From: Gemmatimonadota bacterium
Lineage (GTDB): Bacteria > Gemmatimonadota > Gemmatimonadetes > Gemmatimonadales > JACORV01
Length of the DNA: 40,079 bases
Assembly: GCA_016209905.1 (NCBI GenBank)
Contig: JACQVG010000018.1
Coordinates: 1 to 40,079, forward strand
Direction of reading: 5' to 3'
The position numbers and the translations under genes are program-made. The notes under the pieces were generated by a model, which searched no databases, was not told the DNA's origin, and saw only the letters and a program-made list of their open reading frames with translations. Position 1 is the first letter of the stretch, and each line of letters starts with the position of its first letter. Of this stretch, positions 981 through 29,702 are shown piece after piece.

Positions 981-1393
981 GCCGGTCGAGCATCTCCTCG
1001 CAACCTATCGCTCGCCAGAGCGTGGGCGAGAAGCGGTTCAACTCCCCGGCACCAACGAAGATGTGGCTGCGGCGGAGCGAACACCAGCCGGTGATAGACT
1101 GCACGAAATCGCGGTTCATCCGCAAGGCCGAGGCCCGGCGGTGGCGAAGGTACGGGTCGGCCATCGCGCCCCAGCCGGAGCTTCGACCGCATGAGGGTCA
1201 AGAGTTGCGGATTGAACCACGCGATGGTCCTTGAGGCCAAGCCTCTCCCGAACGATATTCGCTACGAGCACGTTGCCCTCCAAGCAGTCCCGGTTGTCTC
1301 GACCAGGACCGGGAATAGCCGACAGGACACGTGCTCTTCAACATTCACGTCCTACGCGGCAGCACGGATTCTCGAGAGGAGCATCATTCCGGA

Positions 1394-2644: not shown

Positions 2645-3888
2645 ACGGCCTGCACCGGCTCCGGCTCGCCGCCGAGGGCGTAGTGATCGCCCTCGACGCC
2701 ATGCGCTCCAACAAGCTGCGCTCGGCGCTCACGATCCTCGGCGTGCTGATCGGCGTGACGACGGTGATGACCATGGCAGCGCTGATCCAGGGGATCAACG
2801 ACGACATCACCTCGCAGATCGAGAACGCGGGGCCGACGACTTTCTACGTCGTCTGGTGGTGGAACGGGGGCCTCCAGGTCGGGCGGCCGCCCGCCGAAAT
2901 CCGCCTGCGCCCGTACCTCGTCAAGGCGGAGGCCGACGCCCTCGAACAGCTGCCGGAGATCGAGTACACGGCGATGTACGGGTTCACCAACCAGCGGGTC
3001 AGCTACAAGGGCGACCAGACCCGGCCGATCACCATCTACGGCGGGAGCCGCCACGGCCTGGAGATTGACGGCGGGGTCATGGTGGCCGGACGCCAGTTCA
3101 CGCGCGACGAGGAGCTGGTGGGCGCGCCGGTCGTGGTGCTGTACGAGGAGGTGGCCGACCGGCTCTTCGGTCCCTCGATCCCGCTCGGCAAGGTCGTCCA
3201 GATCGGCACGCGCGGCTACCGCGTGATCGGCATCTACCGACGACCCGACAACCTCTTCGCCTCCGACGGACAGAGCGAAGCCGCCGTCATTCCGTTCCAG
3301 AGCCTGCGCCACAACTTTAGGTTCCCGGAGGAGCAGAACTCGATCGTCGCGAAGCCGAAGCCGGGCGTCCCCGTGTTCCGGGCGCAGGACGCGGTGACGC
3401 GGGAGCTGCGCCGGGTGCGCAACATCCCCGTCGGCGCCCCGAACACGTTCGACATCGTGACCCAGGCGCAGGTGCTCGACACGTGGAACAAACTCACCAG
3501 CGTGTTCTTCCTGGTCATGCTGGTGCTGGCCGGCGTGTCGCTGATGGTCGGCGGCATCGGCGTGACCGCGATCATGATGGTCTCCGTCACCGAGCGCACC
3601 CGCGAGATCGGCCTGCGCAAGGCGCTCGGGGCGCGGCGGCTGGATATCCTGTGGCAGTTCCTGGTGGAGGCGGCGACGCTGACGGCTCTGGGCGGCACGG
3701 CGGGCCTGGTCTTGGGCGGCGCCGTCGCCGCGACGGTCGCGCGGCTCACGCCGATCCCCGCCCAGGTGCCGCTCTGGTCGGTGGTGGCCGCCGTCGGCGC
3801 CAGCGTCGCCGTGGGGGTCGGGTTCGGCATCTTCCCCGCCAATCGGGCCGCGAGGCTGGACCCGATCGAGGCGCTGCGCTATGAGTGA
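2641..3888 (+). CDS. MacB/FtsX-type ABC transporter permease
   Basis: NKLRSALTILGVLIG, ERTREIGLRKALGA, ARLDPIEALRYE; GTG start overlaps the previous stop (GTGA). Confidence 0.92.
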   Translation: MNGLHRLRLAAEGVVIALDAMRSNKLRSALTILGVLIGVTTVMTMAALIQGINDDITSQIENAGPTTFYVVWWWNGGLQVGRPPAEIRLRPYLVKAEADALEQLPEIEYTAMYGFTNQRVSYKGDQTRPITIYGGSRHGLEIDGGVMVAGRQFTRDEELVGAPVVVLYEEVADRLFGPSIPLGKVVQIGTRGYRVIGIYRRPDNLFASDGQSEAAVIPFQSLRHNFRFPEEQNSIVAKPKPGVPVFRAQDAVTRELRRVRNIPVGAPNTFDIVTQAQVLDTWNKLTSVFFLVMLVLAGVSLMVGGIGVTAIMMVSVTERTREIGLRKALGARRLDILWQFLVEAATLTALGGTAGLVLGGAVAATVARLTPIPAQVPLWSVVAAVGASVAVGVGFGIFPANRAARLDPIEALRYE

Positions 3889-8480: not shown

Positions 8481-9710
8481 ATGACTCGAACCGCCGAGTA
8501 CCTCGACGAAGTCGAGCGGTGCAGTGCGCGCAACTACAAGCCGCTTCCCATCGTGCTGGAGCGAGGCGAGGCGGCCTGGGTCTGGGATGTGGAGGGCAAG
8601 AAGTACCTCGACTGCCTGAGCGCGTACTCCGCGCTCAACCAGGGCCACAGGCACCCGGCCATCGTGAGGGCGGCGAAGGAACAGCTCGACCGGCTCACGC
8701 TGACGTCCCGCGCCTTCCACAACGACCGGATGGGGCCGTTCCTGCATCAGCTCTGCGAGCTGGCCGGTTTCGCGAAGGCGCTCCCTATGAACACGGGCGC
8801 CGAGGCGGTCGAGACGGCAATGAAGGCGGTCCGCAAGTGGGGCTACCGCGTGAAGGGCGTGCCGGAGGGCAAGGCGGAGATCATCGGGTGCGAGAACAAC
8901 TTTCACGGGCGCACGATCTCGATCATCTCCTGGTCCACGGAGCCGCAGTACCGCGATGGCTTCGGGCCGCTGACGCCGGGCTTCACTCTCGTTCCCTACG
9001 GCGATGCCGCGGCGCTCGAGCGCGCGATCACGCCGAACACGGTCGCGTTCATCGTCGAGCCGATCCAGGGGGAGGGCGGCGTGATCGTGCCCCCCGCCGG
9101 CTACCTCAAGCGGGCGCGGGAGATCTGCACCAGGCACGGCATCCTGTTCGTGGCGGACGAGATCCAGACGGGTCTCGGCCGGACCGGAAAGATGTTCGCG
9201 TGCGAGTGGGAGGGCGTCCGCCCCGACGCGATGATCCTCGGCAAGGCGCTCTCCGGCGGCCTGTATCCGGTCTCGGCATTCCTGGCCGACGAGGCGGTCA
9301 TGGGCGTCTTCACCCCGGGGGACCACGGCTCGACGTTCGGGGGCAATCCGCTGGGCGCGGCGATCGGTTGTGCGGCGCTGCGGGTGTTGGTGGAGGAGAA
9401 ACTCGCCGACCGGGCGCTGGAGCTGGGTGGGTGGTTCCTGGCCGAACTCCGGAAGATCGGTTCGCCGCACGTTGCCGACGTCCGCGGGCTGGGCTTCCTG
9501 ATCGGGGTCGAGATCAGGAAGGCGAGCGGTGCGGCGCGCCCCTACTGCGAGGCGTTGATGGAGCGAGGCATCCTGGCCAAGGAGACGCACGACCAGGTCG
9601 TGCGCTTCGCGCCGCCGCTCGTGATCGCGAAGGCCGATCTCGAGTGGGCTCTCCCCCGCATCGCCGAGGTGCTGGCGATGAGTTTCGAGCCGGCGATGGC
9701 GGCGCCCTAG
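8481..9710 (+). CDS. rocD: Ornithine--oxo-acid transaminase
   Basis: YLDCLSAYSALNQGHRHP, LTLTSRAF, PMNTGAEAVET, EPIQGEGG, DEIQTGLGRTG, LGKALSGG, HGSTFGGNPL. Confidence 0.95.
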   Translation: MTRTAEYLDEVERCSARNYKPLPIVLERGEAAWVWDVEGKKYLDCLSAYSALNQGHRHPAIVRAAKEQLDRLTLTSRAFHNDRMGPFLHQLCELAGFAKALPMNTGAEAVETAMKAVRKWGYRVKGVPEGKAEIIGCENNFHGRTISIISWSTEPQYRDGFGPLTPGFTLVPYGDAAALERAITPNTVAFIVEPIQGEGGVIVPPAGYLKRAREICTRHGILFVADEIQTGLGRTGKMFACEWEGVRPDAMILGKALSGGLYPVSAFLADEAVMGVFTPGDHGSTFGGNPLGAAIGCAALRVLVEEKLADRALELGGWFLAELRKIGSPHVADVRGLGFLIGVEIRKASGAARPYCEALMERGILAKETHDQVVRFAPPLVIAKADLEWALPRIAEVLAMSFEPAMAAP

Positions 9711-9717
9711 ACCGGCC

Positions 9718-9771
9718 TGAAGGAATCTTCACCCTCGATTCACGGTTGTCCCCCACCGCCCCGTCTACGTT
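9718..9771 (+). promoter_or_regulatory. nos operon promoter with TGAA-N6-TTCAC-N6-TTCAC box and -10 TACGTT
   Basis: Same architecture and spacing as 18205-18258 and 18944-18997. Confidence 0.65.
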
Positions 9772-9800
9772 CCGCCGCATCTTATCCGAAGGATCGAGCA

Positions 9801-10217
9801 GTGTCGGCAGTTCGATTCGTGCCAGCGCTCCTCGCCGTGCTCGCGCTCGCCGCGTGCAACCGGGCGGACTCGGCGGACCGGGAAGAGCGCGAGGAGCGGG
9901 CTGAAGAGAACCCACTGATCGAGATGCAGCCGGAGGCGGCGCGGCGCGACCCCCGGACGCAGATCTTCCTCGCCAGGGGCTGCGCGCAGTGCCACGCGAT
10001 CAGCCGCCTGCAGGTGGTCTCGCCGACCAACGTCGGCCCCGACCTGAGCACCGCGGCCGCCGACGTGCCGCGGCGGTTTGGCGTACAGCTCGACCAATTC
10101 CTACGCAGCCCGACGGGCACCATGCAGATCGTGCTCTCGGGTCAGATCCAGCTCTCGGTGCAGGAGCGCGATTCGATCGTCGCCCTGCTCCGCCGGCTCG
10201 ACACCAACAACCCGTGA
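9801..10217 (+). CDS. Monoheme c-type cytochrome lipoprotein
   Basis: Lipobox LALAA-C; heme motif CAQCH; GPDL; distal Met candidate in PTGTM. Confidence 0.88.
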   Translation: MSAVRFVPALLAVLALAACNRADSADREEREERAEENPLIEMQPEAARRDPRTQIFLARGCAQCHAISRLQVVSPTNVGPDLSTAAADVPRRFGVQLDQFLRSPTGTMQIVLSGQIQLSVQERDSIVALLRRLDTNNP

Positions 10218-10243
10218 CCCGCTCACGGGGGAGGCAGCCGACC

Positions 10244-12157
10244 ATGCAGCGCCCCGCAGTGCTTCTCGTCACCGGACTCGTCGCTGTGGCGGGCTGCGGT
10301 CCCAGGGGAACCCAGGGCCGCAACGCCCAAATCGCCGACGTGGCCACGGCTTCGCGAGCCACGTACGTCGCGCCCGGCCGGCAGGACGAGTTCTACCTGT
10401 TCTATTCCGGCGGCCACTCCGGCCAGGTCTACGTCGCCGGCGTGCCCTCGATGCGGCACATCTCGACCATCCCCGTCTTCGCACCCTACCCGGCGACCGG
10501 GTACGGCTTCGACGAAGACAGCCGCCGCATGCTGGGCGAGTACAGCTGGGGCGATGTGCACCATCCCGCCCCGAGCCGCACCAACGGCGACTACGACGGC
10601 CGGTGGCTGTTCGTGAACGACAACGCGAACAATCGCGTCGCCCGCATCGACCTCCGGGATTTCAAGACCAAGCAGATCCTGGGTCCGATCCCGAACTCGA
10701 GCGGGAACCATGGCTCCTCGTTCACGACCGCGAACACCGAGTACGCGCTGGTCGCCTCGCGGTTCTCGATTCCGATCCCGAAGGGCACGGTGGCGCCGCT
10801 CGCGCGCTACGCCACCGACTATCGCGGTATCGTGAGCGGGATCAAGATCGACAGCGCGACCGGCACCATGTCGCTCGACTGGCAGATCGAGACCCCGCCC
10901 ATGAACTGGGATCTCGCGTCCACCGGCAGAGAGCTCTCCGGCGACTGGGCCGTGTGGAGCTGCTACAACGCCGAGCGCGCCACCGGTCGCCTCGAGGTGA
11001 CCGCCTCACGGCGCGACCGCGACTACCTCGCCTTCATCAACTGGCGTCGGGCGGCCGAAGCGGCCCGCGCGGGCCGCTTTCGCATGGTGGGCGGCGCCCG
11101 GGTGCTGAACCCCCGTGACGTGCCGGGCCTGATGTACCTGATTCCGCTGGCCAAGAGCCCGCACGGCGCGGATTTCTCGCCCGACGGCCGGTACGTGGTG
11201 GGCAGCGGCAAGCTCGCGCCCTTCGCCACCGTGTACGACTTCCAGAGGTTCCTCGACGCGGTGCAGCGGAACGACACGGTCGGCAACGAGGACGGGATCC
11301 CCGTCCTGCGCTACGAGTCGGTGCGCGTCGCCGAGGTGCCGGTGGGCCTCGGTCCCCTCCACACGCAGTTCGACGCGGACGGGTACGCCTATACGTCGCT
11401 GTTTGTCGAGTCGGCGATCGCCAAGTGGCGCCTCGGCCCGTTCGACGGCAACGACTCGGCGCTCGTCGTGGCCAAGATCCCGGTGCACTACAACGTCGGG
11501 CACCTCGTCGTCGCGCACGGCGACGCCCGCCATCCGGTGGGACGCTACCTCGTCTCGATGAACAAGCTGTCCCACGGGCGGCATCTCTCCGTCGGCCCGT
11601 CGCAGCCGGAGTCGAGCCAGCTCATCGACATCACCGGCAGCGGGATGACGATGCTGTACGAGGCGTACACGGAGCCCGAGCCGCACTACGCCATCCTGAT
11701 GCAGGCCGGCCTGCTGCGGCCGATCGAGGTCTACCCCCGCGAGGAGAACCGGAACCCCAACGCTATCTGGTCGCCGCAGGAGGCCCGGGTCACCCGCACG
11801 GGGAACCGCGTCGACGTGCGGATGTTCGCGGTGCGCACCTATTTCGCGCCCGACAACATCGAGGTGAACCAGGGCGACTCGGTCCGCATCTACGTCACCA
11901 ACACCGAGCAGAGCACGGACGAGCTGCACGGGTTCGGGCTCGCCGAGTACAACATCAACATCGTGATGGACCCGGGCGAGACGAAGACCGTGGCGTTCCG
12001 CGCCACCAAGCCCGGCGTGTTCCCGTTCTACTGCACGAACTTCTGCTCCGCGATGCATCAGGAGATGCAGGGCTACCTCCTGGTCCGGCCCCGGGGCGGC
12101 ACCACGGTCGCGCAGGCGCAGCGCCGTCGCAGCACGCCGCGGCATCGCGCCGACTGA
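10244..12157 (+). CDS. nosZ: Nitrous-oxide reductase, clade II (Sec-type)
   Basis: SGGHSGQ; CuZ histidines DVHH, GNHG, SPHG, GPLH, VGH, EPH; CuA LHGF...FYCTNFCSAMHQEM; no twin-arginine motif, lipobox VAG-C. ATG 10244 follows GGAGG. Confidence 0.97.
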   Translation: MQRPAVLLVTGLVAVAGCGPRGTQGRNAQIADVATASRATYVAPGRQDEFYLFYSGGHSGQVYVAGVPSMRHISTIPVFAPYPATGYGFDEDSRRMLGEYSWGDVHHPAPSRTNGDYDGRWLFVNDNANNRVARIDLRDFKTKQILGPIPNSSGNHGSSFTTANTEYALVASRFSIPIPKGTVAPLARYATDYRGIVSGIKIDSATGTMSLDWQIETPPMNWDLASTGRELSGDWAVWSCYNAERATGRLEVTASRRDRDYLAFINWRRAAEAARAGRFRMVGGARVLNPRDVPGLMYLIPLAKSPHGADFSPDGRYVVGSGKLAPFATVYDFQRFLDAVQRNDTVGNEDGIPVLRYESVRVAEVPVGLGPLHTQFDADGYAYTSLFVESAIAKWRLGPFDGNDSALVVAKIPVHYNVGHLVVAHGDARHPVGRYLVSMNKLSHGRHLSVGPSQPESSQLIDITGSGMTMLYEAYTEPEPHYAILMQAGLLRPIEVYPREENRNPNAIWSPQEARVTRTGNRVDVRMFAVRTYFAPDNIEVNQGDSVRIYVTNTEQSTDELHGFGLAEYNINIVMDPGETKTVAFRATKPGVFPFYCTNFCSAMHQEMQGYLLVRPRGGTTVAQAQRRRSTPRHRAD

Positions 12158-12218
12158 CACCCGAATGGAGCGCGGGGAGCGGCCCGGGGGCCGTTCCCCC
12201 CGCCCCGCGGTGAAGACC

Positions 12219-12869
12219 ATGGCTCTACCCGCATCGCTCCAAGGTCCCGGTCGCATCGCCCTCTGGCTCGACGGCACGCTGAACAAGCCTGCCCGCATCG
12301 CGATAGTGCTCGCAAGCCTGCTTCTCCTCGTCTCGTTCGCCCTCCCCATGTGGCGCATCACGATGTTCGCCACGCAGTTTCCGGACGGGCTGGAGATGGC
12401 GATCTACCCGCAGCGGATTGCGGGCGGCAACGGCGGCCGGGACCTGAGCGAGATCAACACCCTCAACCACTACATCGGGATGAGGACCATCCAAGCCCGG
12501 GACTTCGCCGAGATGAGGTGGATTCCGTTCGCCCTCGGCGTCTTCGTGCTCCTGGCGGCGCGCGCGGCGGTGTTCGGCAAGGTGGGCAACGCCCTCGACC
12601 TGCTGGTGCTTTTCACCTACTTCGGCCTCTTCTCGCTCGGCTCGTTCTACTACCGGCTGTACAGCTACGGTCACCAGCTCGACGCCGAGGCCCCCATGAC
12701 GGTGGCGCCGTTCACGCCGCCGCTGATCGGGCACCACCGGCTCGCCAACTTCGATGTCTACAGCTTCCCCGGCCTCGGCAGCGGGCCGTTCCTCCTCTTC
12801 GGCGCCGTCCTCGCGGCGGTCCTGGTGGCGGACTACCGGCTGAAGCGGAGGAACCGGGTGGTGGCATGA
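12219..12869 (+). CDS. nosB: NosB-type membrane protein of clade II nos clusters
   Basis: P.WRI...A.QFPDGL, EINTLNHYIGM, YSYGHQLD, PFTPPLIG...LANF...SFPG.G; directly after nosZ. Confidence 0.85.
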   Translation: MALPASLQGPGRIALWLDGTLNKPARIAIVLASLLLLVSFALPMWRITMFATQFPDGLEMAIYPQRIAGGNGGRDLSEINTLNHYIGMRTIQARDFAEMRWIPFALGVFVLLAARAAVFGKVGNALDLLVLFTYFGLFSLGSFYYRLYSYGHQLDAEAPMTVAPFTPPLIGHHRLANFDVYSFPGLGSGPFLLFGAVLAAVLVADYRLKRRNRVVA

Positions 12870-14206
12870 CGCTGCTCGCGGCGCTCCTCGCCCTCGCGGC
12901 CGACACGGTCCGCGTGACGGCCGGCGACGCGGCCGCGCTCCGGGCCGCCCTCGACTCGGCGCCCGGCGGCAGCGTGGTCGCCGTCGGCCCCGGACGCTAC
13001 GACGGGCCGTTCATCGTGACCCGATCCCTGACCATCCTCGGCGAAGGGCGACCCACGCTGGGGGGGCGGAGGCAGGGGACGATCGTGCGGATCACCGCGC
13101 CCGACGTCACCCTGCGCGGCTTCCGGCTCGAGGAGGGAGGCCCCGACACCGATCGCGACGACGCCGGCGTGCTGGTGGAGGCCGTCCGCGCCCGCCTCGA
13201 AGACCTCGAAATCCGGGACGTGCACCACGGCGTGTATCTCAAGCAGGCGCATCACGCCGTCATCCGCGGGGTGACGATCCGTGGGCGCGCGGCGCTCGGG
13301 CCCAATCAACGCGGCGACGGGATCCACTTCTACTTCTCCACCCACGTCTTCGCCGAAGGGAACGACATCGCGGACGTGCGGGACGGGATGTACTTCTCGT
13401 ACAGCGACACGACGGTCGTTCGCGGGAACCGGGTCACGCGCTCCCGCTACGGTCTCCACTACATGTTCTCGCACGCGAACCGGTTCGAGGACAACCGCTT
13501 CACCGCCAGCGCGGCAGGAACCTCGATCATGAACTCGCGAGACGTCCTCGTGCGCGGCAACCTCTTCGCGCACAACCGCGGCGTCGAGTCGTTCGGCCTC
13601 CTGCAGCAGACGACCGAACGCGTCACGCTGGAGGAGAACGTGTTCCTCGACAACGGGGTCGGCCTCTTCTTCGACGGCGCCGTGGACGGCGTCGTGCGCG
13701 GCAACCTGGTGGCAGGGAATTTCGTCGGCCTCGAGATCTACCAGAGCGCCGAGCGGAACCGCGTGTGGGACAACGCGATCGTCGGGAACAGCTACCCGGC
13801 CACCGGGGCCGGCCGGGGCAACGTCTTCTGCGTGAACGGGCGCGGCAACTACTGGGACGACGGCCGGCGGTACGACCTCGACGGCGACGGAGTGAGCGAC
13901 GTGCCGTTCGAGACGGCCTCGCCGCTGACGGAGCTGTCGCGGGGCAGACCTGCGCTGCGACTCTTCCTGGCGAGTCCGGCCGCCGCCGCGCTGGGCTGGG
14001 CCGAGCGAACCTTCCCGGTCTTCGACATCGCGTCCGTCACCGACAGCTGCCCCCTCGCCGCGCCGCCCCGTGATTGGCACGCGGCCGGCGCGTGGGAGGC
14101 GCCGCGCGGCGGGAACGGCCCCACCTTGGTAACCGCCGGGGCGACTCTGCTGCTCGGCCTCGCCCTGCTGCTCCGGGGCGCACCGAGGGGGAGGGGGCGC
14201 GCATGA
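12866..14206 (+). CDS. nosD: NosD copper-binding beta-helix maturation protein
   Basis: RGDGIH, VRDGMYF, SRYGLHYMFS, GNYWDD...YDLDGDGVSDVP; ATGA overlap with nosB. Confidence 0.93.
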   Translation: MTLLAALLALAADTVRVTAGDAAALRAALDSAPGGSVVAVGPGRYDGPFIVTRSLTILGEGRPTLGGRRQGTIVRITAPDVTLRGFRLEEGGPDTDRDDAGVLVEAVRARLEDLEIRDVHHGVYLKQAHHAVIRGVTIRGRAALGPNQRGDGIHFYFSTHVFAEGNDIADVRDGMYFSYSDTTVVRGNRVTRSRYGLHYMFSHANRFEDNRFTASAAGTSIMNSRDVLVRGNLFAHNRGVESFGLLQQTTERVTLEENVFLDNGVGLFFDGAVDGVVRGNLVAGNFVGLEIYQSAERNRVWDNAIVGNSYPATGAGRGNVFCVNGRGNYWDDGRRYDLDGDGVSDVPFETASPLTELSRGRPALRLFLASPAAAALGWAERTFPVFDIASVTDSCPLAAPPRDWHAAGAWEAPRGGNGPTLVTAGATLLLGLALLLRGAPRGRGRA

Positions 14207-14922
14207 TCTGCGTCGAGCGGCTGACCAAGCGCTTCGGCTCCCGGGAGGCCCTGCGCGACGTCTCCGTCTCGGTCGCTCCCGGCGAAGTGGTGGCCGTCGT
14301 CGGAGCGAACGGCGCCGGGAAGTCCACGCTGCTCAAAGCCGTGGTCGGGATCGTCCGGCCCAGCGGCGGACGCATCACGGTGGGCGGCCACGACGTCGAA
14401 GCCGAGGCCGTGGCGGCGCGCCGTCTCGTGGGGTACGTGCCCCAGCGGCTCGCCTTCCCCGACCACGTCACGCCCCACGAGCTGTGTCGCCTGGTCGGCA
14501 CGCTCCGGGGCGTGGGGGCATCCGACGCCGACGCCGGCGCGACCCTGGACGCCGTGGCGCTCGGCGAGCGCGCGCGCTCGGGGGTGCGGGACCTCTCCGG
14601 AGGCCAGCGGCAGCGGCTGTCCCTCGCGCTCGCCCTGGTCGGCGCGCCGCGCGCCCTCGTTTTCGACGAGCCGTCCATCTCACTCGACGCCGACGGGGCG
14701 GAGGTCGTTCGCGCGGCGATCCTCTCCGCCAAGACCCGAGGTGCGGCGATCCTCTTCGCGACCCATCACCAGCACGAGGTAGCGGCGCTGGCAGACCGTG
14801 TCGTGGTGCTCAGCCACGGGCAGGCGGTGGCCCGGGCCGGGGCCGCCCAGATTCAGGGGCCGGGCAGTTTTGAAGCGTTCTATCGCGACGCGCTCCGCCG
14901 TGAGGTGTCCCGTGCGGCGTAG
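14203..14922 (+). CDS. nosF: ABC ATPase NosF
   Basis: GANGAGKST, LSGGQRQR, LVFDEP, H-loop; lies between nosD and the permease. Confidence 0.88.
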   Translation: MICVERLTKRFGSREALRDVSVSVAPGEVVAVVGANGAGKSTLLKAVVGIVRPSGGRITVGGHDVEAEAVAARRLVGYVPQRLAFPDHVTPHELCRLVGTLRGVGASDADAGATLDAVALGERARSGVRDLSGGQRQRLSLALALVGAPRALVFDEPSISLDADGAEVVRAAILSAKTRGAAILFATHHQHEVAALADRVVVLSHGQAVARAGAAQIQGPGSFEAFYRDALRREVSRAA

Positions 14923-14946
14923 CCGGCACCGCCCTGAGGAGCGGCC

Positions 14947-15825
14947 GTGACGACCGTCGCCGAGCCGGCGCCGCTCAGCTTCGCCCGGCCTAGGGCGATC
15001 CGGCCGCTCGGCCGCCAGCTGGCGGCGCTCGCCCGCTACGAGCTCGCCGTGGAGATGCGGGGCAGAATCCTGCCGGTCTTCGCCGTCGGCTTCGCGCTCG
15101 CGGCGCTGGCGGTCGCGCTCGTGGGTATGTCGGCGGGCGGCACGATCCTCGTGCAGGGATTCGGCCGGACGGCGGTCAGCCTGCTCCAACTCTCCCTCTG
15201 GGTCGTCCCGCTGGTCGGGCTGGCGGTGAGCGCTCTCGCCGCAGCCGACGGCTACGACATGGAGACGCTGGCCGCGCAGCCCATCGGCCGGGGCACCCTG
15301 GTCGTGGGCCGCGCGCTCGGGCGCTTCGTCGCGCTGGGCGCGGCGGTGGCGGTCGGTTACGGCGTGGCGGGCGTCGTGATCGCGGGGGCGGCCGGGACGG
15401 GCGACGCGCTGCGCTACCTCGGCCTGGTGGGCGTGGCGGTCGCGCTGGCGGCAGCGAGCACCAGCCTCGGCACGCTGGCGGGCGTCGCTGCGCGCACCCG
15501 CACGCGAGCGCTGGCGCTCGCCGTCGGACTGTGGTTCGTCCTCGCGCTGGGGTTCGACCTGGCGGCCATCGCCGCGCTCGGCGTTCTGCCGCGCGCCCAG
15601 CTGACCTGGTGCCTGTCGGGGCTCCTCCTCCTCGACCCGGTGGATACGGCGCGCGCCATCGGCGTGGGTCTCCTCGGTGCGGAGGCGATCGCCGGGCCGA
15701 TGGGCGCGGCGCTGCGGCGTGTCCTCGGTCCTTGGGGTCTCTTGGCGTTGTGGGTGGGGCTCGCGGCGTGGACGGCGCTGCCGCTCGCCCTCGCGGCCCG
15801 CCTCTTCGCGCGCCGTGACCTCTAG
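14947..15825 (+). CDS. nosY: ABC permease NosY
   Basis: Multi-TM protein; FGRTAVSLLQL...VPL, ETLAAQPIGR, LLLLDPVD..R. Confidence 0.85.
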   Translation: MTTVAEPAPLSFARPRAIRPLGRQLAALARYELAVEMRGRILPVFAVGFALAALAVALVGMSAGGTILVQGFGRTAVSLLQLSLWVVPLVGLAVSALAAADGYDMETLAAQPIGRGTLVVGRALGRFVALGAAVAVGYGVAGVVIAGAAGTGDALRYLGLVGVAVALAAASTSLGTLAGVAARTRTRALALAVGLWFVLALGFDLAAIAALGVLPRAQLTWCLSGLLLLDPVDTARAIGVGLLGAEAIAGPMGAALRRVLGPWGLLALWVGLAAWTALPLALAARLFARRDL

Positions 15826-15943
15826 GCCAGGGAGGCTTCGCTCGGCTTTGGCGCCCCCGTCGCGGGGAGCCGAGTATCGTGACTTGACGTCGCCGGGGGT
15901 GGAACGGGAATGGAGCGGGGCCCCGGGACAAGGAGTGGGCGCG

Positions 15944-16864
15944 ATGACGTGGAACCCCATCATCGTCGGCGTGGACGGCTCGCAGGAGTCGGTGCGGGCG
16001 GCGGTCATCGGATGCGCGGTGGCGAAAGCGGCCGGCACGGACTGCCAGCTCGTCCACGCGGTGCCCGACTACTGGGGGGCGACCTGGATGCCCGAAGTCG
16101 CGGGCGACCCGGCGGAGTTGAACGAAGCGTTGAGAGGCCACGCCCGCACGCTGCTGGTGAGCGCGCTGGAGGGAAGCGTGCCGAGCCGGCTGCTGCGCAA
16201 CCTCGACGTCCGCGTCGGCCGGGCGCCGATCGTGCTGGCTCACGTGGCGGCCGAGCGTGGTGCCGGGCTGGTGGTGCTGGGCGGCAAGCACCACAAGGGC
16301 CTGGGCCGGCTGGGCAGCAGCACGCTGCAGCACATGGTGCGCACCTCCGACGTCCCGCTGCTCGCCACGGACGGCACCTCGGGAACCGTCGAGCGCGTGC
16401 TCGTAGCTGTGGACCTCTCGTACGCCGCCAGGCCTGCCATCGAGGCCGGTGAGCGGTTCGCCAAGCTGTTCGACGCGCAGCTTCGAGTCATGCACGCCGT
16501 CGAGCCGGTCCCGGTGATCCCGGGCTTCCCGCTGGACATCGGCGACGACGACTGTTACCGCAGCGTCGAGCGGCTCCTTGAGATGACGGTGTGGCCGCTC
16601 GTCGAAGCGCCGGGAGCGGAGAAAGTCGTGCGGCGGGGGCGGGCGGCCGCGGTCATCGTCAGCGAGGTGACCCAGTGGCGGGCGGACCTCGTGATCGTGG
16701 GCTCGCACGGGAAAGGGTGGGTGGACCGGCTGCTGATCGGCAGCACGTCGGAGCGGCTGCTCCACCTCCTGCCTACGCTCACGCTCGTCATCCCGGTCGC
16801 CAGGCCGAGCGATGCCGGCCCTCTGCCGGCGGTCGCGCCGCCGCCGGCCGGCACGGCGAGGTAG
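15944..16864 (+). CDS. Tandem-domain universal stress protein
   Basis: IIVGVDGS, second domain VLVAVDLS, ADLVIVGSHG...LLIGSTSERLL; AGGAG ribosome-binding site. Confidence 0.92.
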   Translation: MTWNPIIVGVDGSQESVRAAVIGCAVAKAAGTDCQLVHAVPDYWGATWMPEVAGDPAELNEALRGHARTLLVSALEGSVPSRLLRNLDVRVGRAPIVLAHVAAERGAGLVVLGGKHHKGLGRLGSSTLQHMVRTSDVPLLATDGTSGTVERVLVAVDLSYAARPAIEAGERFAKLFDAQLRVMHAVEPVPVIPGFPLDIGDDDCYRSVERLLEMTVWPLVEAPGAEKVVRRGRAAAVIVSEVTQWRADLVIVGSHGKGWVDRLLIGSTSERLLHLLPTLTLVIPVARPSDAGPLPAVAPPPAGTAR

Positions 16865-16938
16865 CCGGACCGCCGCCCTAGACGTAGGTTTCGCGCGGAC
16901 CCCCGCGGACCCCCGCGGCCGCTCGCGCCGAGGACCGG

Positions 16939-18207
16939 TTGCCTTCCCACCGCACCGCCGGAGAGCCGCTGACCTCCGACCCCGACACCTTCCGCATCCG
17001 GGAACGGTTCGAGCGGCTGCTCGCAGCCGGGATCTCCATCTCCTCCGAGCGCTCCCTGGACCGCGTGCTCCAGCAGGTCGTGGACTCCGCGCGCGCGGTC
17101 GTCGAGGCGCGCTACGCCGCCCTTGGCATCCTGGGCGAGGACGGCGCCACGCTGGTGCGCTTCGCCGCGTCGGGCCTGAGCGAGGCCGAGCGGGAACGAA
17201 TCGGCGCCTGGCCGCGCGGCCGCGGGCTGCTCGGGGCGGTGATCCGGGATCGGAAGCCGCTGCGCATCGCGGAGATCGGCGCCCATCCGGAAGCCTACGG
17301 CTTCCCCGCCCACCATCCCGCCATGCGCTCGTTCCTCGGCGTCCCCGTCGTCGGGCGCACGGGACCGGTCGGGAACCTGTACATGGGCGACAAGATCGGG
17401 GCGCGCGAGTTCAGCGCGGAGGACGAGTCCATCGCCGTCCTCCTGGCGGCCCAAGCGGCGGTCGCGGTGGAGAACGCCCGACTCTACGACGAGACGGCCC
17501 AGCTGCTGGGCAGGGTGCAGGCGATGCAGCGCCAGCGCGATCAGTTCTTCGCCATGATCAACCATGAACTGCGCAACGCGCTGACCGGTGTGTACGGATG
17601 GGCCGAGCGGCTGCTCCGCTCCCATTCGGGAAGGGCGGCCGCCCGCGCGGCGCGGGAGGTCTACGAAGGAGCGGAGAGGGCGGTCACGCTGATGAACAAC
17701 CTGCTCGACCTGAGCCGCCTGGACGCCGGGAAGGTGCAGGCGGTGTGGCGCCAGGCCGCGCTCCGCGACGTCGTCGAGCGCGCCCGGGCTCTCGTCCAGC
17801 CGGCCGCGGATGCCAAGCGGATCGCGCTGGAGGAGGAGTTCCCGGAGCCCTCGCCCCGCTGCCGCACCGACACCATGCGCTTCGAGCAGATCCTGGTGAA
17901 CCTGTTGAGCAACGCCATCCGCCACAGCCCGTCCGGCGAGACGGTCGCCGTCAGGGTCGAGACCACGGCGGACGAGATCCTGGTGCACGTCATTGATCGC
18001 GGGCCCGGCATCCCGCTCGAAGCGCAGGGCAAGATCTTCGAGCCCTACATCCGCGTGGACCCGGAGTCCGGCCTGGGCTCGGGCCTGGGCCTGCCCGTCT
18101 CGCGCCGCCTGGCGGAGCTGCTGGGCGGCCGGCTGAGCGTGCACAGCGCGCTGGGCCGCGGCGCGACGTTCACGCTGGCGGTTCCGAGCGCTCCGCCCGG
18201 CGAATGA
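16939..18207 (+). CDS. Soluble GAF-domain sensor histidine kinase (DosS/DosT-like GAF with HisKA/HATPase)
   Basis: ARYAALGI...PRGRGLLG...HPEAYGFPAHHPAMRSFLGVP...GNLY; H-box HELRNAL; NLLSNA, DRGPGI, GSGLGL; no TM segment. Start uncertain. Confidence 0.9.
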   Translation: MPSHRTAGEPLTSDPDTFRIRERFERLLAAGISISSERSLDRVLQQVVDSARAVVEARYAALGILGEDGATLVRFAASGLSEAERERIGAWPRGRGLLGAVIRDRKPLRIAEIGAHPEAYGFPAHHPAMRSFLGVPVVGRTGPVGNLYMGDKIGAREFSAEDESIAVLLAAQAAVAVENARLYDETAQLLGRVQAMQRQRDQFFAMINHELRNALTGVYGWAERLLRSHSGRAAARAAREVYEGAERAVTLMNNLLDLSRLDAGKVQAVWRQAALRDVVERARALVQPAADAKRIALEEEFPEPSPRCRTDTMRFEQILVNLLSNAIRHSPSGETVAVRVETTADEILVHVIDRGPGIPLEAQGKIFEPYIRVDPESGLGSGLGLPVSRRLAELLGGRLSVHSALGRGATFTLAVPSAPPGE

Positions 18208-18258
18208 ACCTTTCTTCACGCCGGGTTTAGCGGCGATTCAGCCGTCGCGAGGTATGGT
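18205..18258 (+). promoter_or_regulatory. Response-regulator promoter with shared box, likely leaderless
   Basis: TGAA-N6-TTCAC-N6-TTTAG-N6-TTCAG-N11-TATGGT; ATG 7 nt after the -10, no Shine-Dalgarno. Confidence 0.65.
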
Positions 18259-18264
18259 GCCCGA

Positions 18265-18936
18265 ATGAAGATCCTCGTCGTCGAAGACGATCGCAAAGTC
18301 GCCGGGTTCATCGAGCAGGGCCTCCGTGAGGAGGGCTACTCCGTGGACGTCGCCCCCGACGGCGACGAGGCGACGATGCTCGCCCACGTGTACGATTACG
18401 ACGTGATCGTTCTCGACGTGATGCTGCCGAAGAAAAGCGGACTGCACGTTGCGGCGGAGCTTCGGCGCGAGGGCCGGGGGACGCCGGTCCTCATGCTGAC
18501 CGCGCGGGACGCCACGGAGGACATCGTCCGCGGACTCGACGCCGGTGCCGACGACTACCTCACCAAGCCGTTCAAGTTCGATGAGCTGCTCGCGCGGGTG
18601 CGCGCCCTCGTGCGCCGCGGCGGCGCGACCCGGACGGAGCTGTTGACGTACGGGCCGATCGAGCTCGACCGGCTGAAGCACAAGGTCCGCGTCGGCGGGA
18701 GGGGGCTGGAGCTGTCTCCCAAGGAGTTTCACCTGCTGGAGCACTTCCTCCTGCGCCCGGAGGAGGTGGTGCGTCGCACCGAGCTGTTGGAGAAGGTGTG
18801 GGACATGCACTTCGACCCCGAGAGCAACGTCGTGGACGTGCACGTCGGGAATCTGCGGCGCAAGCTTCGGCAGGCCGCCCAGATGAGCCTGATCCACACC
18901 GTGCGCGGCGTCGGCTTCCGCCTCCAGAAACCCTAG
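18265..18936 (+). CDS. OmpR/PhoB-family response regulator (CusR/CopR-like)
   Basis: ILVVEDD, LDVMLP, LTARD, GADDYLTKPF, VWDMHFDPESNVVDVHV, IHTVRGVGF. Confidence 0.95.
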   Translation: MKILVVEDDRKVAGFIEQGLREEGYSVDVAPDGDEATMLAHVYDYDVIVLDVMLPKKSGLHVAAELRREGRGTPVLMLTARDATEDIVRGLDAGADDYLTKPFKFDELLARVRALVRRGGATRTELLTYGPIELDRLKHKVRVGGRGLELSPKEFHLLEHFLLRPEEVVRRTELLEKVWDMHFDPESNVVDVHVGNLRRKLRQAAQMSLIHTVRGVGFRLQKP

Positions 18937-18943
18937 GCCTCGA

Positions 18944-18997
18944 TGATGGGATCTTCACGCAACTTTCACGCTGCCTTCATCCGGCGCGGGCTAGGCT
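18944..18997 (+). promoter_or_regulatory. Promoter with shared box pointing into an ORF-poor structured region
   Basis: TGAT-N6-TTCAC-N6-TTCAC-N6-TTCAT-N11-TAGGCT. Confidence 0.65.
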
Positions 18998-19003
18998 CGC
19001 TGT

Positions 19004-19260
19004 GACCACCCGAATCGGTGGTCGGTGCGGGATCGCCCCTGAGGAGGGGCCGGCGCTCAAAACGCCGCCGACGGATCGGTTCGCTCGGAGTCACCGGCCG
19101 CACGTTCACTGGCTCGCGCCGGTACGAGAACACGAAACCCGGCGACAAACAGGCACTCGAGGAGCGGACGCCATCGGGTCAGGCACGACCCGACCAAAGT
19201 GATCGGTCGGAAGAAATGTCCTCCAGCCCCCGCGCTCCCCCGGAGAACGGGGGCTGATCT
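19004..19260 (+). ncRNA. Putative novel structured small RNA
   Basis: Predicted start coincides with the first base of hairpin GACCACC/GGTGGTC; a chain of further hairpins ends in the 9-bp stem CAGCCCCCG/CGGGGGCTG. Confidence 0.5.
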
Positions 19261-19271
19261 CTTCCAGCCTC

Positions 19272-20384
19272 CTAGTATCTCAGCCCCGTCGCGTCCGCGA
19301 ACTGCTTCAGGATGGCTTCCTGCTCGGCCGAGAGCTTGGTGGGAACCTCCAGGCTGACCTCCACCAACTGGTCGCCCCGCGCGCTGTTCTTCTCGATGCC
19401 CTGCCCCTTGATCCGGAACTTGCGACCGGGCTGGGTGCCGGCCGGAATCCGGAGCACGACGTGCTTGCCGTCGAGCGTGCGCACCTTGAGCTTCGTTCCG
19501 AGCATCGCCTGGGCGACGTTGATCGGCACCACGCAGTGCACGTCGAGTCCGTCGCGGTGGAAGAATCGGTCGGGCTCGACCTGGAAGGTGATCACGAGGT
19601 CGCCCGCTGCCGCGCCGCCCGTCCCGCGCAACCCCTGCTCCTTGAGGCGCAGCTTCGCGCCGGAATCGGCGCCGGCAGGCACCTCGATCATCAGGCGTTT
19701 CTCGAGCTTGACGTCGCCGACCCCGTGGCAGGTGCCGCACCGCCGTGACGCGACCCGGCCCTTGCCGCGGCAGGCGGGACACGGTCGCTTGACCGCGAAG
19801 CCTCCGTAACCGAACGAGACCTGCCCGCTCCCCTGGCACTCGGAGCAGGCCGTGAGCGTCGCGCCCGGCGCGGCCCCCGAGCCTCCGCAGGTCGGGCAGC
19901 CTTCCGTCACGGGCACAACCACCGGCACCTTGCCGCCGAGCGCCGCTACTCGGAACGGGAGGGTCACCACCGTCTCCACGCTCTCGCCCCGCTCGCGCCC
20001 GCCGCGCTTCGCCTCGCCGCCGAAGATGGAGGAGAACAGGTCGCCGATCCCGCCCAGACCAGCGTAATCCTTGAGGTCGAAGTCCTCGAACCGCGCACCC
20101 GCGCCGCCGCCGGCCGGCCGGCCCGGGGCGCTGCGCGCCCCGAAGCCGGTGAATCCGCCGTAGCGGCGGAGGCGGTCGTAGTGCTTGCGCTTTTCGTCGT
20201 CGGACAGGACGGCATACGCTTCGGTGATCTCCTTGAAGCGTTCGCCGGTCGTCCTGTCCCCCCCGCCGGGGCTGGCGTCGGGATGGTGCTTCTTCGCCAG
20301 TTTCCGGTAGGACCGCTTGATCTGGTCCTTCGTCGCCGATTCGGCGACGCCCAGTATCCGGTAGTAGTCCTTCTGCTGCGACAC
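19272..20384 (-). CDS. dnaJ: Chaperone DnaJ
   Basis: J domain with HPD, G/F-rich linker, four CxxCxGxG motifs, C-terminal domain. Confidence 0.95.
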   Translation of the reverse strand: MSQQKDYYRILGVAESATKDQIKRSYRKLAKKHHPDASPGGGDRTTGERFKEITEAYAVLSDDEKRKHYDRLRRYGGFTGFGARSAPGRPAGGGAGARFEDFDLKDYAGLGGIGDLFSSIFGGEAKRGGRERGESVETVVTLPFRVAALGGKVPVVVPVTEGCPTCGGSGAAPGATLTACSECQGSGQVSFGYGGFAVKRPCPACRGKGRVASRRCGTCHGVGDVKLEKRLMIEVPAGADSGAKLRLKEQGLRGTGGAAAGDLVITFQVEPDRFFHRDGLDVHCVVPINVAQAMLGTKLKVRTLDGKHVVLRIPAGTQPGRKFRIKGQGIEKNSARGDQLVEVSLEVPTKLSAEQEAILKQFADATGLRY

Positions 20385-25438: not shown

Positions 25439-26116
25439 TCAGCCCAGGGATTTCAGGACGAGCTTGCTGACCGCCTTGAGGGTCTCGAACACCCCGTCAC
25501 CGGTGATGGCGACGGCCTCGCGCGCCGGCGCCCGCTCCACCCACTCGCCGGTCGGCAACTGCCGGACGAGAAAGTCACCCGGGAAAACCGGGTCCGGCAC
25601 GGGCGTCTGCTTGTCGGAGTCGGCGACCGGCCAGCCCGGATTCAGCGCTGCCTGAAGCTCCTTGACCGGGGAGGCGTTCGGCAGATCCCGCTTGTTGAAC
25701 TGGACGACGAACGGGATCTTGGTGAGATCGTACCCGTACTCCCCCATGTTGTCGTACAGGTTCTGCATGGACTCGACGTTCGCCTCCAGCCGCTCGAGCT
25801 GGCTGTCGGCGACGAACACGACGCCGTCCACGCCCTTCAGGATGAGCTTGCGGCTCGCGTTGTAGTAAACCTGGCCCGGCACCGTGTAGAGGTGGAACCG
25901 GGTCTTGAAACCTCGCACCGTGCCAAGGTCCACCGGGAGGAAGTCGAAGAACAGCGTCCGCTCGGTCTCCGTGGCCAGCGAGATGAGCTTGCCGCGGGAC
26001 GCCGGGTTCACCCTGCCGAACACATGCTCCAGATTGGTGGTCTTGCCTCCGAGCCCGGGCCCGTAGTAAACCAGCTTGCAGTTGATCTCGCGCGAGGCGT
26101 AGTTGATCATCGACAT
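25439..26116 (-). CDS. mglA: MglA small GTPase
   Basis: [48 protein letters not shown]. Confidence 0.95.
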
Positions 26117-26128
26117 GGTGCGCGCCTC

Positions 26129-26620
26129 TCAGTCGCCGAACAGCTTGTCGATCTCATCTTCCGCCTCTTTGCTCGCGAAGCCCTCGAGCTTGGTTGACTC
26201 CGGCCCGGTCCGATCGAACATCGCCTCGAACAGCTTGCTAAGATCCTCGACCGCGGTCTTGACCTTCAGCCGCACCATGCCCAGCGTCGTGCGGTTGTCG
26301 AACAGCGCGACCAGAATCACGCGCCGGGCGACGTCGGCGAGGTACATGGATTCTTTCTCGCCCTGATGGAACAGCGATGAGAACTCCTGCTCGCCGATCA
26401 TCTTGGCCAGCTGGTCGTTGGCGCTGAAATCGGCTGCGGTGAGGGACGCGAAGGCCTGCGGATCGAATTGGGGGGGCTCGCCGACGCTGGCGACGACCTG
26501 GCCGGCGCGGTCCACCAGGAGGAGGCTCTTGACGTTGGTCTCCCGGAGGAGGCCGTTCATGTGAGCCGAAATGGCCTTGGAGTCTTCTTCCCGGAACGAC
26601 CAGCTGGACGCACCCGGCAT
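26129..26620 (-). CDS. mglB: MglB roadblock/LC7 GTPase-activating protein
   Basis: LLVDRAGQ, ASLTA, LAKMIGE.EF..LFHQGE, TTLGMVRL; adjacent to mglA. Confidence 0.93.
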   Translation of the reverse strand: MPGASSWSFREEDSKAISAHMNGLLRETNVKSLLLVDRAGQVVASVGEPPQFDPQAFASLTAADFSANDQLAKMIGEQEFSSLFHQGEKESMYLADVARRVILVALFDNRTTLGMVRLKVKTAVEDLSKLFEAMFDRTGPESTKLEGFASKEAEDEIDKLFGD

Positions 26621-26633
26621 CGGCGCCTCGCCT

Positions 26634-26903
26634 CTAGTCCAGTTTGGCTTCCATGCGGCGCATGATGGCCTCGGCCCGCCGCCGCAGCGACGGATGCTCC
26701 TCCCACGCGATGTACTCGCGCAGCACCCGCACCGTCTCGACCCCCGGGTGCCCGCTCAAGTAGCCCAGCGCCGACAGGCGGCGGAGCGGACGGGCCGAGA
26801 ACAGCGAGGAGCGCCAGCGACCCATCGAGCGCTGCGCCAGCGCGGCGCCGACGACGAAGCCGGCTGCGAGCGACCCCATGAAATACCAGGCGCGGCGCCT
26901 CAT
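26634..26903 (-). CDS. Small membrane-anchored hypothetical protein
   Basis: 89 aa; N-terminal hydrophobic helix followed by HEAT-like RRLSALGYL helices; ATGA overlap with the recR stop. Confidence 0.7.
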   Translation of the reverse strand: MRRRAWYFMGSLAAGFVVGAALAQRSMGRWRSSLFSARPLRRLSALGYLSGHPGVETVRVLREYIAWEEHPSLRRRAEAIMRRMEAKLD

Positions 26904-29590: not shown

Positions 29591-29629
29591 ACGGCCCCCC
29601 GAACGGCTATGCAGTTCCGAGTGGGTGAG

Positions 29630-29702
29630 CTGGGGCGGGAGGATTCGAACCTCCAACTTCCCGGTTAACAGCCGGGCGGTCTGCCAGTTGACCTACACCC
29701 CA
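29630..29702 (-). tRNA. tRNA-Asn (GTT)
   Basis: TGGGGTG/CGCCCCA acceptor stem, anticodon arm CCCGG-CT GTT AA-CCGGG, T-arm GGTTCGAATCC; CCA not encoded. Confidence 0.96.

Follow-up and report, generated by a model that had tools for sequence, protein, structure and literature searches.

A predicted heme-GAF sensor kinase related to DosT and DosS and its OmpR-type partner beside a clade II nitrous oxide reductase cluster of Gemmatimonadota

Which signal is perceived by a soluble sensor histidine kinase whose gene lies behind a nitrous oxide reductase (nos) gene cluster, and which genes are controlled by its partner regulator? The question is raised by a stretch of 40,079 nucleotides (hereafter the window; contig C145) from a Gemmatimonadota bacterium, the metagenome-assembled genome of which comprises 2.17 Mb on 225 contigs with an estimated completeness of 89.5%. 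Here, the gene of the kinase (16939-18207, + strand, TTG start, 422 residues) is followed by that of an OmpR/PhoB-type response regulator (18265-18936, + strand, ATG start, 223 residues). Both open reading frames (ORFs) lie where an original prediction, made from the nucleotide sequence, had placed them, and the pair adjoins, as had likewise been stated, a gene for a tandem universal stress protein (USP) as well as nosZ, nosD, nosF and nosY genes, all identified by Pfam and NCBIfam. The same prediction had taken the kinase for a cytoplasmic gas sensor akin to mycobacterial DosS and DosT that serves nitrous oxide (N2O) respiration. As set out below, it is on balance probable that a heme-GAF kinase and an OmpR-type regulator act on an operator of three half-sites and control nos together with the regulator's own gene, and nos appears as one of several kinds of genes associated with the pair.

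With respect to its architecture, the kinase carries according to Pfam a GAF_2 domain (residues 37-178, E = 2.4e-19; nucleotides 17047-17472), a HisKA domain (PF00512, residues 199-264, E = 3.4e-13; nucleotides 17533-17730) and a HATPase_c domain (residues 311-417, E = 2.3e-26; nucleotides 17869-18189), all on the + strand, in agreement with the predicted single GAF domain on a HisKA core. Only one GAF stretch was detected, and Pfam gave no match to HisKA_3 in this protein. The highest mean Kyte-Doolittle value over 19 residues is 1.33, i.e., the protein is nowhere hydrophobic enough to form a membrane helix, which accords with the cytoplasmic location that had been assumed. The GAF domain is a genuine homologue of GAF-A of DosT and DosS, and the proposed likeness to the latter was borne out both by alignment and by structure prediction. 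In phmmer comparisons with the sequences of the PDB it matches DosT GAF-A (2vzw) with an E value of 1.7e-39 and DosS GAF-A (2w3d) with 1.6e-34, the alignment to these requiring one gap only, of a single residue, while the next-best GAF domain of any kind reaches 2.5e-6. When an AlphaFold model built on 20 family sequences (mean predicted local distance difference test score 83.2), was compared with the PDB by Foldseek, the top 17 matches were all GAF-A domains of DosS or DosT (template modelling score 0.76-0.88, root-mean-square deviation 2.1-2.6 Å, identity 42-49%), and other GAF domains began at an E value of 7.9e-9.

The homology includes the residues that hold the heme in the mycobacterial proteins, numbered here as in an excerpt of the review PMC4082495. 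His126 (17314-17316, + strand), the second histidine of an AHHPAM motif, aligns with the proximal ligand, His147 in DosT and His149 in DosS, and Tyr148 (17380-17382, + strand), the tyrosine of GNLYM, with the distal Tyr169 of DosT and Tyr171 of DosS, the two residues being 22 positions apart in both proteins. These equivalents had been pointed out in the original prediction and are retained throughout the family: together with the phospho-acceptor His209 (17563-17565, + strand) they are invariant in 38 of 38 orthologues in spite of an overall kinase identity of only 47-67% (a 39th row of the alignment is a wrong kinase, which alone deviates in most of the columns listed), and the stretches HP-x-M-x-x-FLGVP and G-x-LY are invariant or nearly so in the same 38 sequences. 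Of the 11 DosT residues listed in the excerpted review text (PMC4082495) as lying within 4 Å of the heme, six are identical in the kinase, namely Arg106, Ile109, Gly110, Gly115, Arg116 and Gly117 in DosT numbering. The position of DosS Glu87, occupied by Gly85 in DosT, corresponds to Gly63 and is a glycine in all 39 aligned rows; the same excerpt of PMC4082495 contains the proposal that a glycine at this place permits a stable oxy complex. By analogy with DosT, we infer that the domain binds heme, and along the same lines we predict the gas that it would sense, the sign of its response and the ensuing phosphotransfer.

The regulator is composed of a receiver domain (Response_reg, residues 3-113, E = 7.8e-31), in which the phospho-acceptor Asp51 as well as Thr79 and Lys101 are present, and a winged-helix DNA-binding domain (Trans_reg_C, residues 146-220, E = 3e-26), the combination that characterises the OmpR/PhoB type. 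It had been described as CusR-like, and its top NCBIfam family is indeed that of the heavy-metal regulators CusR, CopR and CzcR (TIGR01387); the score of 233.5 bits, however, stays short of the cut-off of 279.2, and the label holds for the closest family but not for membership therein. Another OmpR-type regulator of the genome, encoded on contig C190, has 44% identity to it. Its association with the kinase was followed in 40 loci of up to 20 kb from related genomes, 20 without and 20 with nosZ. In 39 of them the regulator gene lies directly 3' of the kinase gene (one of these, L052, is partial, and the fortieth, L042, is stopped by the contig end), and with 71-88% identity the regulator is better conserved than the kinase (47-67%). 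The metagenomic protein P0240 (987 residues) is even a fusion, in which a GAF-GAF-HisKA-HATPase kinase is followed in the same chain by a receiver domain and a DNA-binding domain of the OmpR type (Trans_reg_C). The kinase-regulator pair is a conserved family of the Gemmatimonadota and is probably specific to this phylum.

How widely this kind of sensor is distributed can be judged from several searches. A protein search yielded more than 5,000 matches at E values up to 1e-10; the best 120, mostly of about 400-440 residues, all consist of GAF, HisKA and HATPase_c domains and have, the window's own protein aside, 62-72% identity, the few proteins amongst them that have a name being entered as GAF-domain sensor kinases of Gemmatimonadales. 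When 401 genomes of the phylum were sampled, with a match at an E value up to 1e-25 as the definition of a carrier of the GAF domain, 155 genomes proved to be carriers, comprising 133 of 166 genomes of family f2, 6 of 93 of family f3 and, besides the window itself, none of the five of its own family f1; in 14 of the 155 the E value is no better than about 1e-26 to 1e-27, and these might belong to another subfamily. A second set of 80 further loci from named public genomes includes 37 Gemmatimonadota carriers, all of them metagenome-assembled genomes, as well as 35 from Actinomycetota and seven from Chloroflexota. The H-box of the Gemmatimonadota proteins in this set reads NHE[LM]RN in 36 of 37, and in 34 of the 37, as in the window (His126 to His209), the H-box histidine lies exactly 83 residues past the heme histidine. 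A HisKA_3 signature, defined by a regular expression and not by Pfam, is found in 33 of the 35 Actinomycetota and in all seven Chloroflexota carriers. In a tree of the GAF domains made by a quick method, the careful tree search being incomplete, the Actinomycetota fall on one side and the Gemmatimonadota and Chloroflexota on the other (Shimodaira-Hasegawa-like approximate likelihood ratio test 91), and no origin or direction of transfer is drawn from it.

From a representative search, 27 of the closest cluster representatives (36-59% identity) were chosen by eye. Each of them has H-P-x-M-x-x-F-L-G-x-P and then G-x-L-Y as its signature, although their architectures range from one, two or three GAF domains on HisKA over PAS-GAF-HisKA and the DosS-type GAF-GAF-HisKA_3 to a hybrid kinase and the P0240 fusion. 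Because the same signature recurs with HisKA, HisKA_3, PAS, hybrid and fused-regulator architectures, the heme-type GAF domain of DosS and DosT is, judged by its sequence, a widely reused sensor cassette. The metagenomic kinases P0121, P0123, P0124 and P0240 are among those with two or three tandem GAF domains bearing the heme signature. A count of 1,713 proteins at E values up to 1e-30 was rejected as a measure of family size, for it is overstated by giant multi-GAF proteins that are ranked at the top via summed scores; of the proteins of more than 1,100 residues in the representative search, all but three are without the heme signature.

A candidate operator for the regulator is the pattern TGAA-N6-TTCA-N7-TTCA, that is, three half-sites with a spacing of 11 bp, the first of them inverted. 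In the 782 kb of the window and the 40 loci it was counted 20 times, in contrast to zero to two times for each of 48 other spacer combinations. Being spacing-specific, it was adopted in place of the first lead, a simple TTCAC-N6-TTCAC repeat, which is not enriched (four sites genome-wide at N6 versus six at N7 and seven at N10); a position weight matrix derived from constrained seeds was circular and was excluded from all counts. Of the four sites in the 2.17-Mb genome, two are exact and two have one mismatch, and three of the four lie in the 9.6-kb block of the cluster. Box 1 (TGAAGGAATCTTCACCCTCGATTCA; 9718-9742, + strand, exact) is located 8 nt past the stop codon of a gene for ornithine aminotransferase, and 58 nt separate its end from the GTG start of the cytochrome c gene heading the nos cluster; box 2 (18205-18229, + strand, one mismatch), the TGA of which is the stop codon of the kinase gene, ends 35 nt before the ATG of the regulator gene; and box 3 (18944-18968, + strand, one mismatch, with an extra TTCA one period further on, up to 18979) starts 8 nt past the stop codon of the regulator gene. 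The fourth site is the only exact one outside the window (contig C1:25450-25474) and lies about 95 nt upstream of the genes (L115:1570-5041) for a flavoprotein resembling the small subunit of glutamate synthase (Fer4_20/Pyr_redox_2) and for a 2-oxoacid:ferredoxin oxidoreductase (POR, POR_N, PFOR_II), an oxygen-sensitive type of enzyme; this operon is a possible further low-oxygen target.

In the relatives, exact sites are located upstream of the regulator gene in five of the 40 loci (including L050), of the kinase gene in one locus, of nosZ or of cytochrome c-nosZ in four, of a NirK-like gene in two and of a nosF-like ATP-binding cassette (ABC) gene in two, two further sites being left unassigned to a gene. 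The 2 kb upstream of nosZ contain the motif in five of 20 genomes with the kinase versus none of 20 without it (eight of the latter from family f2). Of the 155 genomes with the GAF domain in the sample of 401, 99 contain it (208 sites), versus 38 of the 246 without (55 sites); of the 33 f2 genomes without GAF domain only three do, while a reversed control pattern occurs nine times in total. In the independent set of further loci, a site with at most one mismatch sits at the junction of kinase stop and regulator start in 15 of the 37 Gemmatimonadota loci, in the same place and orientation, and the 43 loci of other phyla, 221 kb in all, are free of sites. An autoregulated regulator of the OmpR family with nos among its targets would be in keeping with the strict register, the fixed place before the regulator gene and the concentration of sites in this block, and TGAA-N6-TTCA-N7-TTCA is presumably bound by the regulator of this cluster.

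Whether nos is the dedicated target can be addressed by gene content. A nosZ gene is found in 164 of the 401 genomes; 92 genomes have both the GAF domain and nosZ, 63 only the former, 72 only the latter and 174 neither (genome handles for this comparison were typed by hand, and contig positions were read by eye). In 35 genomes both reside on one contig, within 10 kb of each other and in several orientations in 21, at a distance of 14-32 kb in 11 and of 51-96 kb in three; the other 57 of the 92 have them on separate contigs or at a position that is not listed. The linkage with nos proposed for the window thus recurs in relatives, as seen in 21 of the 35 genomes with both on one contig; of the 155 carriers, 92 have nosZ, and in 63 no nosZ was found. 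What did not withstand the comparison is the idea of a sensor dedicated to N2O respiration, as 72 of the 164 nosZ genomes are in turn without the GAF domain; an exclusive role in this process is also contradicted by the USP, CBS-pair, heme-copper oxidase, NirK-like and metal-transport genes amongst the neighbourhoods and motif sites. In view of these 63 and 72 discordant genomes, nos can therefore be one target at most; clearly, the linkage is frequent but not obligatory, and the system exists without nos.

From these data the following mechanism can be proposed. We predict that the single GAF domain binds a b-type heme, with His126 as the ligand and Tyr148 on the distal side, as in GAF-A of DosT and DosS, and the C-terminal helix of this domain would continue toward the HisKA helix bearing His209, with the fixed spacing of 83 residues in between. 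By analogy with DosT, deoxy heme or heme with bound NO or CO would permit autophosphorylation of His209, whereas the binding of O2 would turn the kinase off; the phosphate would then be passed from His209 to Asp51 of the adjacent regulator. The latter would bind the three half-sites 11 bp apart and activate a cytochrome c-nosZ-orfX-nosDFY(-USP-kinase) operon and its own gene and, in this genome, also the operon of the 2-oxoacid:ferredoxin oxidoreductase. The USP and kinase genes might be transcribed by read-through from the nos operon, since a terminator scan of the cluster yielded none that is convincing on the + strand. The ligand and the direction of the response would accordingly be those of DosT. 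N2O reductase is inactivated by oxygen, as stated in an excerpt of PMC10100939, and hypoxic induction would therefore be physiologically sensible.

The genes surrounding the pair in the 40 loci were obtained from our own ORF calls, with a codon-position G + C (guanine plus cytosine) filter that can miss genes, and were clustered and scanned by representatives with Pfam and NCBIfam. Within the 20-kb locus, a tandem USP gene is found in 22 of them, a CBS-pair protein gene in 13, a heme-copper oxidase subunit I gene in 12 (plus ccoN in five), a gene for a NirK-like two-domain copper protein in eight (TIGR02376, 183 bits, below the cut-off of 296.3) and nosZ in seven (eight including the window); SulP-STAS, COX2 and ZIP genes occur in six loci each, and FixO, FixP, FixG, globin, Rrf2 and radical SAM genes in three to four each. 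USP, CBS pairs, ccoN/FixO/FixP/FixG, heme-copper oxidases, the NirK-like protein and nosZ as neighbours fit low-oxygen respiration. Multicopper-oxidase-like genes recur as well, and P-type ATPase genes are found in 14 loci, in 10 of which a heavy-metal ATPase of the P1B type lies directly 3' of the regulator gene; the one scanned matches TIGR01525 with 497 bits (cut-off 346). In 21 other loci this place is taken by the gene of a membrane kinase resembling CopS or CzcS, with one regulator flanked by two kinases. Three examples of this second kinase were scanned (L036:11888-13291, L071:11902-13290 and L065:11937-13805), and their top family is that of heavy-metal sensors (TIGR01386), with 230-241 bits below the cut-off of 292.55. 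Amongst the residues behind the H-box histidine, three specificity positions were compared between the two kinase types (Thr/Ala versus Thr, Gly versus Gly and Trp versus Glu); they agree at two of the three, which carries no weight either way. In the window neither a CopS-like kinase gene nor a P1B ATPase gene lies beside the regulator gene, and in the whole genome, which is 89.5% complete, the closest match to the second kinase has only 36% identity. Copper input through the CopS-like kinase is likely in many relatives, but not in the genome of the window as assembled. It is tempting to combine both inputs, and as a tentative extension one large Gemmatimonadota family might constitute a switch of copper-dependent respiration, in which the heme-GAF kinase would report on O2 or NO and the CopS-like kinase on periplasmic copper, and a single OmpR-type regulator, by binding the operator of three half-sites, would pass both on to NosZ, the NirK-like enzyme, heme-copper oxidases, metal transporters and USPs.

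Several observations weigh against control of nos and of its own gene by a heme-based system, and they bear in part on other explanations. In those 21 loci the membrane kinase is perhaps the main partner of the regulator, and the whole might then be a copper or heavy-metal system of the CopRS/CusRS/CzcRS type, with the periplasmic metal kinase as main input and the GAF kinase as accessory input or phosphatase, cuproenzymes (NosZ, the NirK-like protein and heme-copper oxidases) and metal transporters as targets, and the metal kinase lost or encoded elsewhere in the genome at hand. The top families of regulator and second kinase, the P1B ATPase genes next to the regulator in a quarter of the loci and the recurrence of multicopper-oxidase-like, ZIP, COX1/COX2 and nosZ genes speak for it. 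We consider it unlikely, though, as both heavy-metal scores are below their curated cut-offs, the second kinase is not beside the regulator of the window, the invariant partner is the GAF kinase (39 of 40 loci) rather than the second kinase (21 of 40), and USP, CBS and ferredoxin oxidoreductase genes as targets have non-metal functions; moreover, metal and gas sensing are compatible with each other in a possible dual-input system. The pocket itself also differs from that of DosT in five of the 11 heme contacts (Tyr98 to Ala, Ser111 to Ala, Leu112 to Trp, Glu114 to Arg and Val118 to Leu), and the relay of Glu87 and His89 in DosS is missing, the corresponding residues being Gly63 and Leu65. The ligands of GAF domains are many, and at lower scores the fold search retrieved GAF domains that bind cyclic nucleotides, bilins or nitrate; conceivably, the DosS/DosT fold is kept here for another ligand or a redox route served by the same histidine and tyrosine. 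This is distinctly unlikely in the face of 42-49% identity to both solved heme GAF domains with a very large score gap to all others, the invariance of heme histidine, distal tyrosine and Gly-rich heme-contact loop in 38 of 38 orthologues, and the presence of the signature in all 27 closest representatives whatever their architecture; furthermore, DosT likewise has a glycine at the position of Glu87 (excerpt of PMC4082495).

Further points concern the operator and its owner. A simple sigma-70 scan of 9500-19400 found no promoter, neither the USP gene nor the kinase gene of the window is immediately preceded by a site even when one mismatch is allowed, the sites near the USP gene have the opposite orientation in three loci (L049, L057 and L072), and there remain the 63 and 72 discordant genomes as well as the 38 that hold the motif without the GAF domain. 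The counts of motif and kinase are not independent because both share a phylogenetic distribution, mostly in family f2. The motif could be owned by a different regulator that travels with these loci, e.g., one of the Crp/Fnr type, in which case the adjacency to nos would be incidental and the two-component system would control something else. Together, half-sites one and two make up an inverted repeat, which reads TGAAG-N4-CTTCA in several sites and has a layout that Crp/Fnr-type dimers also use; motif and kinase occur in one lineage, in which their co-occurrence was perhaps inherited; 57 of the 92 genomes with GAF domain and nosZ do not demonstrably have them on the same contig; and the nos block of this genome lies in a variable region (see below). 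Against such a coincidence, which appears quite improbable, stand the third half-site, which keeps the strict 11-bp period, the concentration of three of the four genome-wide sites in one block, and the absence of any other transcription factor gene conserved beside the pair, Rrf2 being found in only three of the 40 loci. In addition, in many loci the motif precedes the regulator gene at a fixed distance of about 35 nt, which is the pattern expected of an autoregulated response regulator.

The setting of the pair in the window, the G + C content of which is 66-75%, is a co-oriented + strand block between the ornithine aminotransferase gene (8481-9710) on one side and a convergent dnaJ-grpE pair on the other. 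It is headed by the gene of a small c-type cytochrome (9801-10217, + strand, GTG start, 138 residues) with a CAQCH heme-c motif and a weak Pfam match to Cytochrom_C (E = 0.0013; 20.4 bits, cut-off 21.3); a cytochrome c gene is also found 5' of nosZ in the relative locus L070. The following nosZ gene (10244-12157, + strand), with its likely ATG at 10244 and a GGAGG 5' of it, encodes a nitrous oxide reductase of the Sec type (Pfam nos_propeller and Cupredoxin_1) that scores 813.7 bits against TIGR04246 (cut-off 625) and 458.3 bits against the twin-arginine translocation type TIGR04244 (cut-off 625); together with nosD and the ABC genes this makes a clade II (Sec-type) nos cluster. Between nosZ and nosD lies an ORF of 234 residues (12165-12869, + strand) that had no match in the Pfam and NCBIfam scans and yet is conserved in linkage with nos, a homologue (tblastn, 34-41% identity) being located beside nosZ in six of the seven relatives' loci with a nosZ match (L068, L069, L070, L072, L073 and L074). 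It is followed on the same strand by nosD (12866-14206, ATG at 12866; Pfam NosD, E = 3.2e-35, and Beta_helix), the gene of a nosF-like ABC ATPase (14203-14922, ATG at 14203; ABC_tran, E = 1.1e-29), that of a nosY-like ABC-2 permease (14947-15825; ABC2_membrane_2, E = 1.7e-17) and the tandem USP gene (15944-16864, 306 residues; two Usp stretches, E = 3.9e-32). The USP stop is separated from the kinase start by 74 nt, in which a 10-bp unit, GCGGACCCCC, is present in two tandem copies at 16895-16914. Behind the regulator gene, a stretch of 335 nt without called gene (18937-19271) extends to the 3' end of dnaJ; it opens with a motif copy and ends with a G + C-rich inverted repeat at about 19226-19258 that could terminate transcription on both strands, and scans for Rfam families (gathering score) and tRNAs gave no match in it.

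In the family relatives, the spacing between the ornithine aminotransferase gene and dnaJ amounts to 162 nt (G155:C99), 17.5 kb (G069:C1) and 32 kb (G328:C3), and in the remaining two of the five the two genes lie on separate contigs. Since this spacing varies and nosZ, the GAF domain and the motif were found in none of the five, the block from cytochrome c to the regulator sits in a region that is variable; the block was perhaps acquired as one piece. An intergenic alignment of G155 to the edges of the nos block produced no usable non-coding match, leaving the borders of the block undefined. Elsewhere in the window, a gene for a small Arf/Ras-like GTPase adjoins a Roadblock/LC7 gene (25439-26755, - strand), an arrangement that we take to be an MglA/MglB-like pair; two matches to MacB-type permeases (MacB_PCD and FtsX) are found at 1331-3888 (+ strand), one in ORF 1331-2644 and one in the C-terminal half of ORF 1759-3888, which overlaps it in another frame; and a tRNA-Asn (GTT) gene at 29629-29702 (- strand) is the only RNA gene that Rfam and tRNA scans revealed in the window.

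Amongst characterised systems, DosS/DosT-DosR of M. tuberculosis comes closest on the side of the sensor, as the kinases have in common the homology of GAF-A, the proximal histidine, the distal tyrosine, the Gly-rich loop and a soluble nature, and DosT also the glycine at the position of DosS Glu87. USP and CBS-pair genes, which belong to the Dos regulon, are found nearby in the window or in relatives, and DosS and DosT both feed DosR, much as two kinases flank one regulator in relatives. In contrast, there is one GAF domain here instead of GAF-A and GAF-B, with no room for a second one because the H-box histidine follows the heme histidine after only 83 residues; the core is HisKA (PF00512) instead of HisKA_3; the partner is a winged-helix regulator of the OmpR/PhoB type instead of the NarL-type DosR; and the host belongs to the Gemmatimonadota, with a three-half-site 11-bp repeat as predicted operator. 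As GAF-B, HisKA_3 and a DosR-type partner, i.e., three of the four features tested, are lacking, the system is not a member of DosS/DosT. Most likely it senses like DosT and has the output of an OmpR-family system, and what is new with respect to characterised DosS and DosT is the wiring and not the sensor itself.

The CusRS/CopRS/CzcRS systems are approached by the regulator and by the second kinase of relatives, both of which score best against these families, and by P1B ATPase and multicopper-oxidase-like neighbours; unlike them, all two-component scores are below the cut-offs, the kinase of the window has neither a periplasmic sensor nor a membrane segment, and its locus has no metal-sensing kinase. 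FixL-FixJ of rhizobia, a heme-PAS O2 sensor kinase with its partner, induces genes of microaerobic and N-oxide respiration such as that of the cbb3 oxidase. The likeness is one of outline, a heme-based O2 sensor kinase with ccoN, FixO, FixP and FixG near the pair in some relatives, while the heme of FixL is held by a PAS and not a GAF fold, the sensor domains are non-homologous and the partner is of the NarL/FixJ type. In Proteobacteria, FnrP, NNR and ANR-DNR couple nos transcription to O2 or NO, and the nos regulators named in an excerpt of PMC10100939 are Crp/Fnr-type factors of that phylum. The proposed role is the same; those, however, are one-component factors with an Fe-S cluster or heme, in contrast to the two-component system described here. 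Full-text literature searches, with subscription journals outside their scope, retrieved no paper on a heme-GAF kinase in Gemmatimonadota or on the regulation of nos in this phylum.

If the dual-input switch should prove true, clade II nosZ would gain its first described O2-responsive regulator that is not of the Crp/Fnr kind. With a sensor, a regulator and an operator defined, the time at which N2O reduction is switched on in these soil bacteria would become directly testable. For the biochemistry of heme sensors, the family would represent a minimal natural DosT-like module that consists of one GAF domain, a fixed linker and a standard HisKA core.

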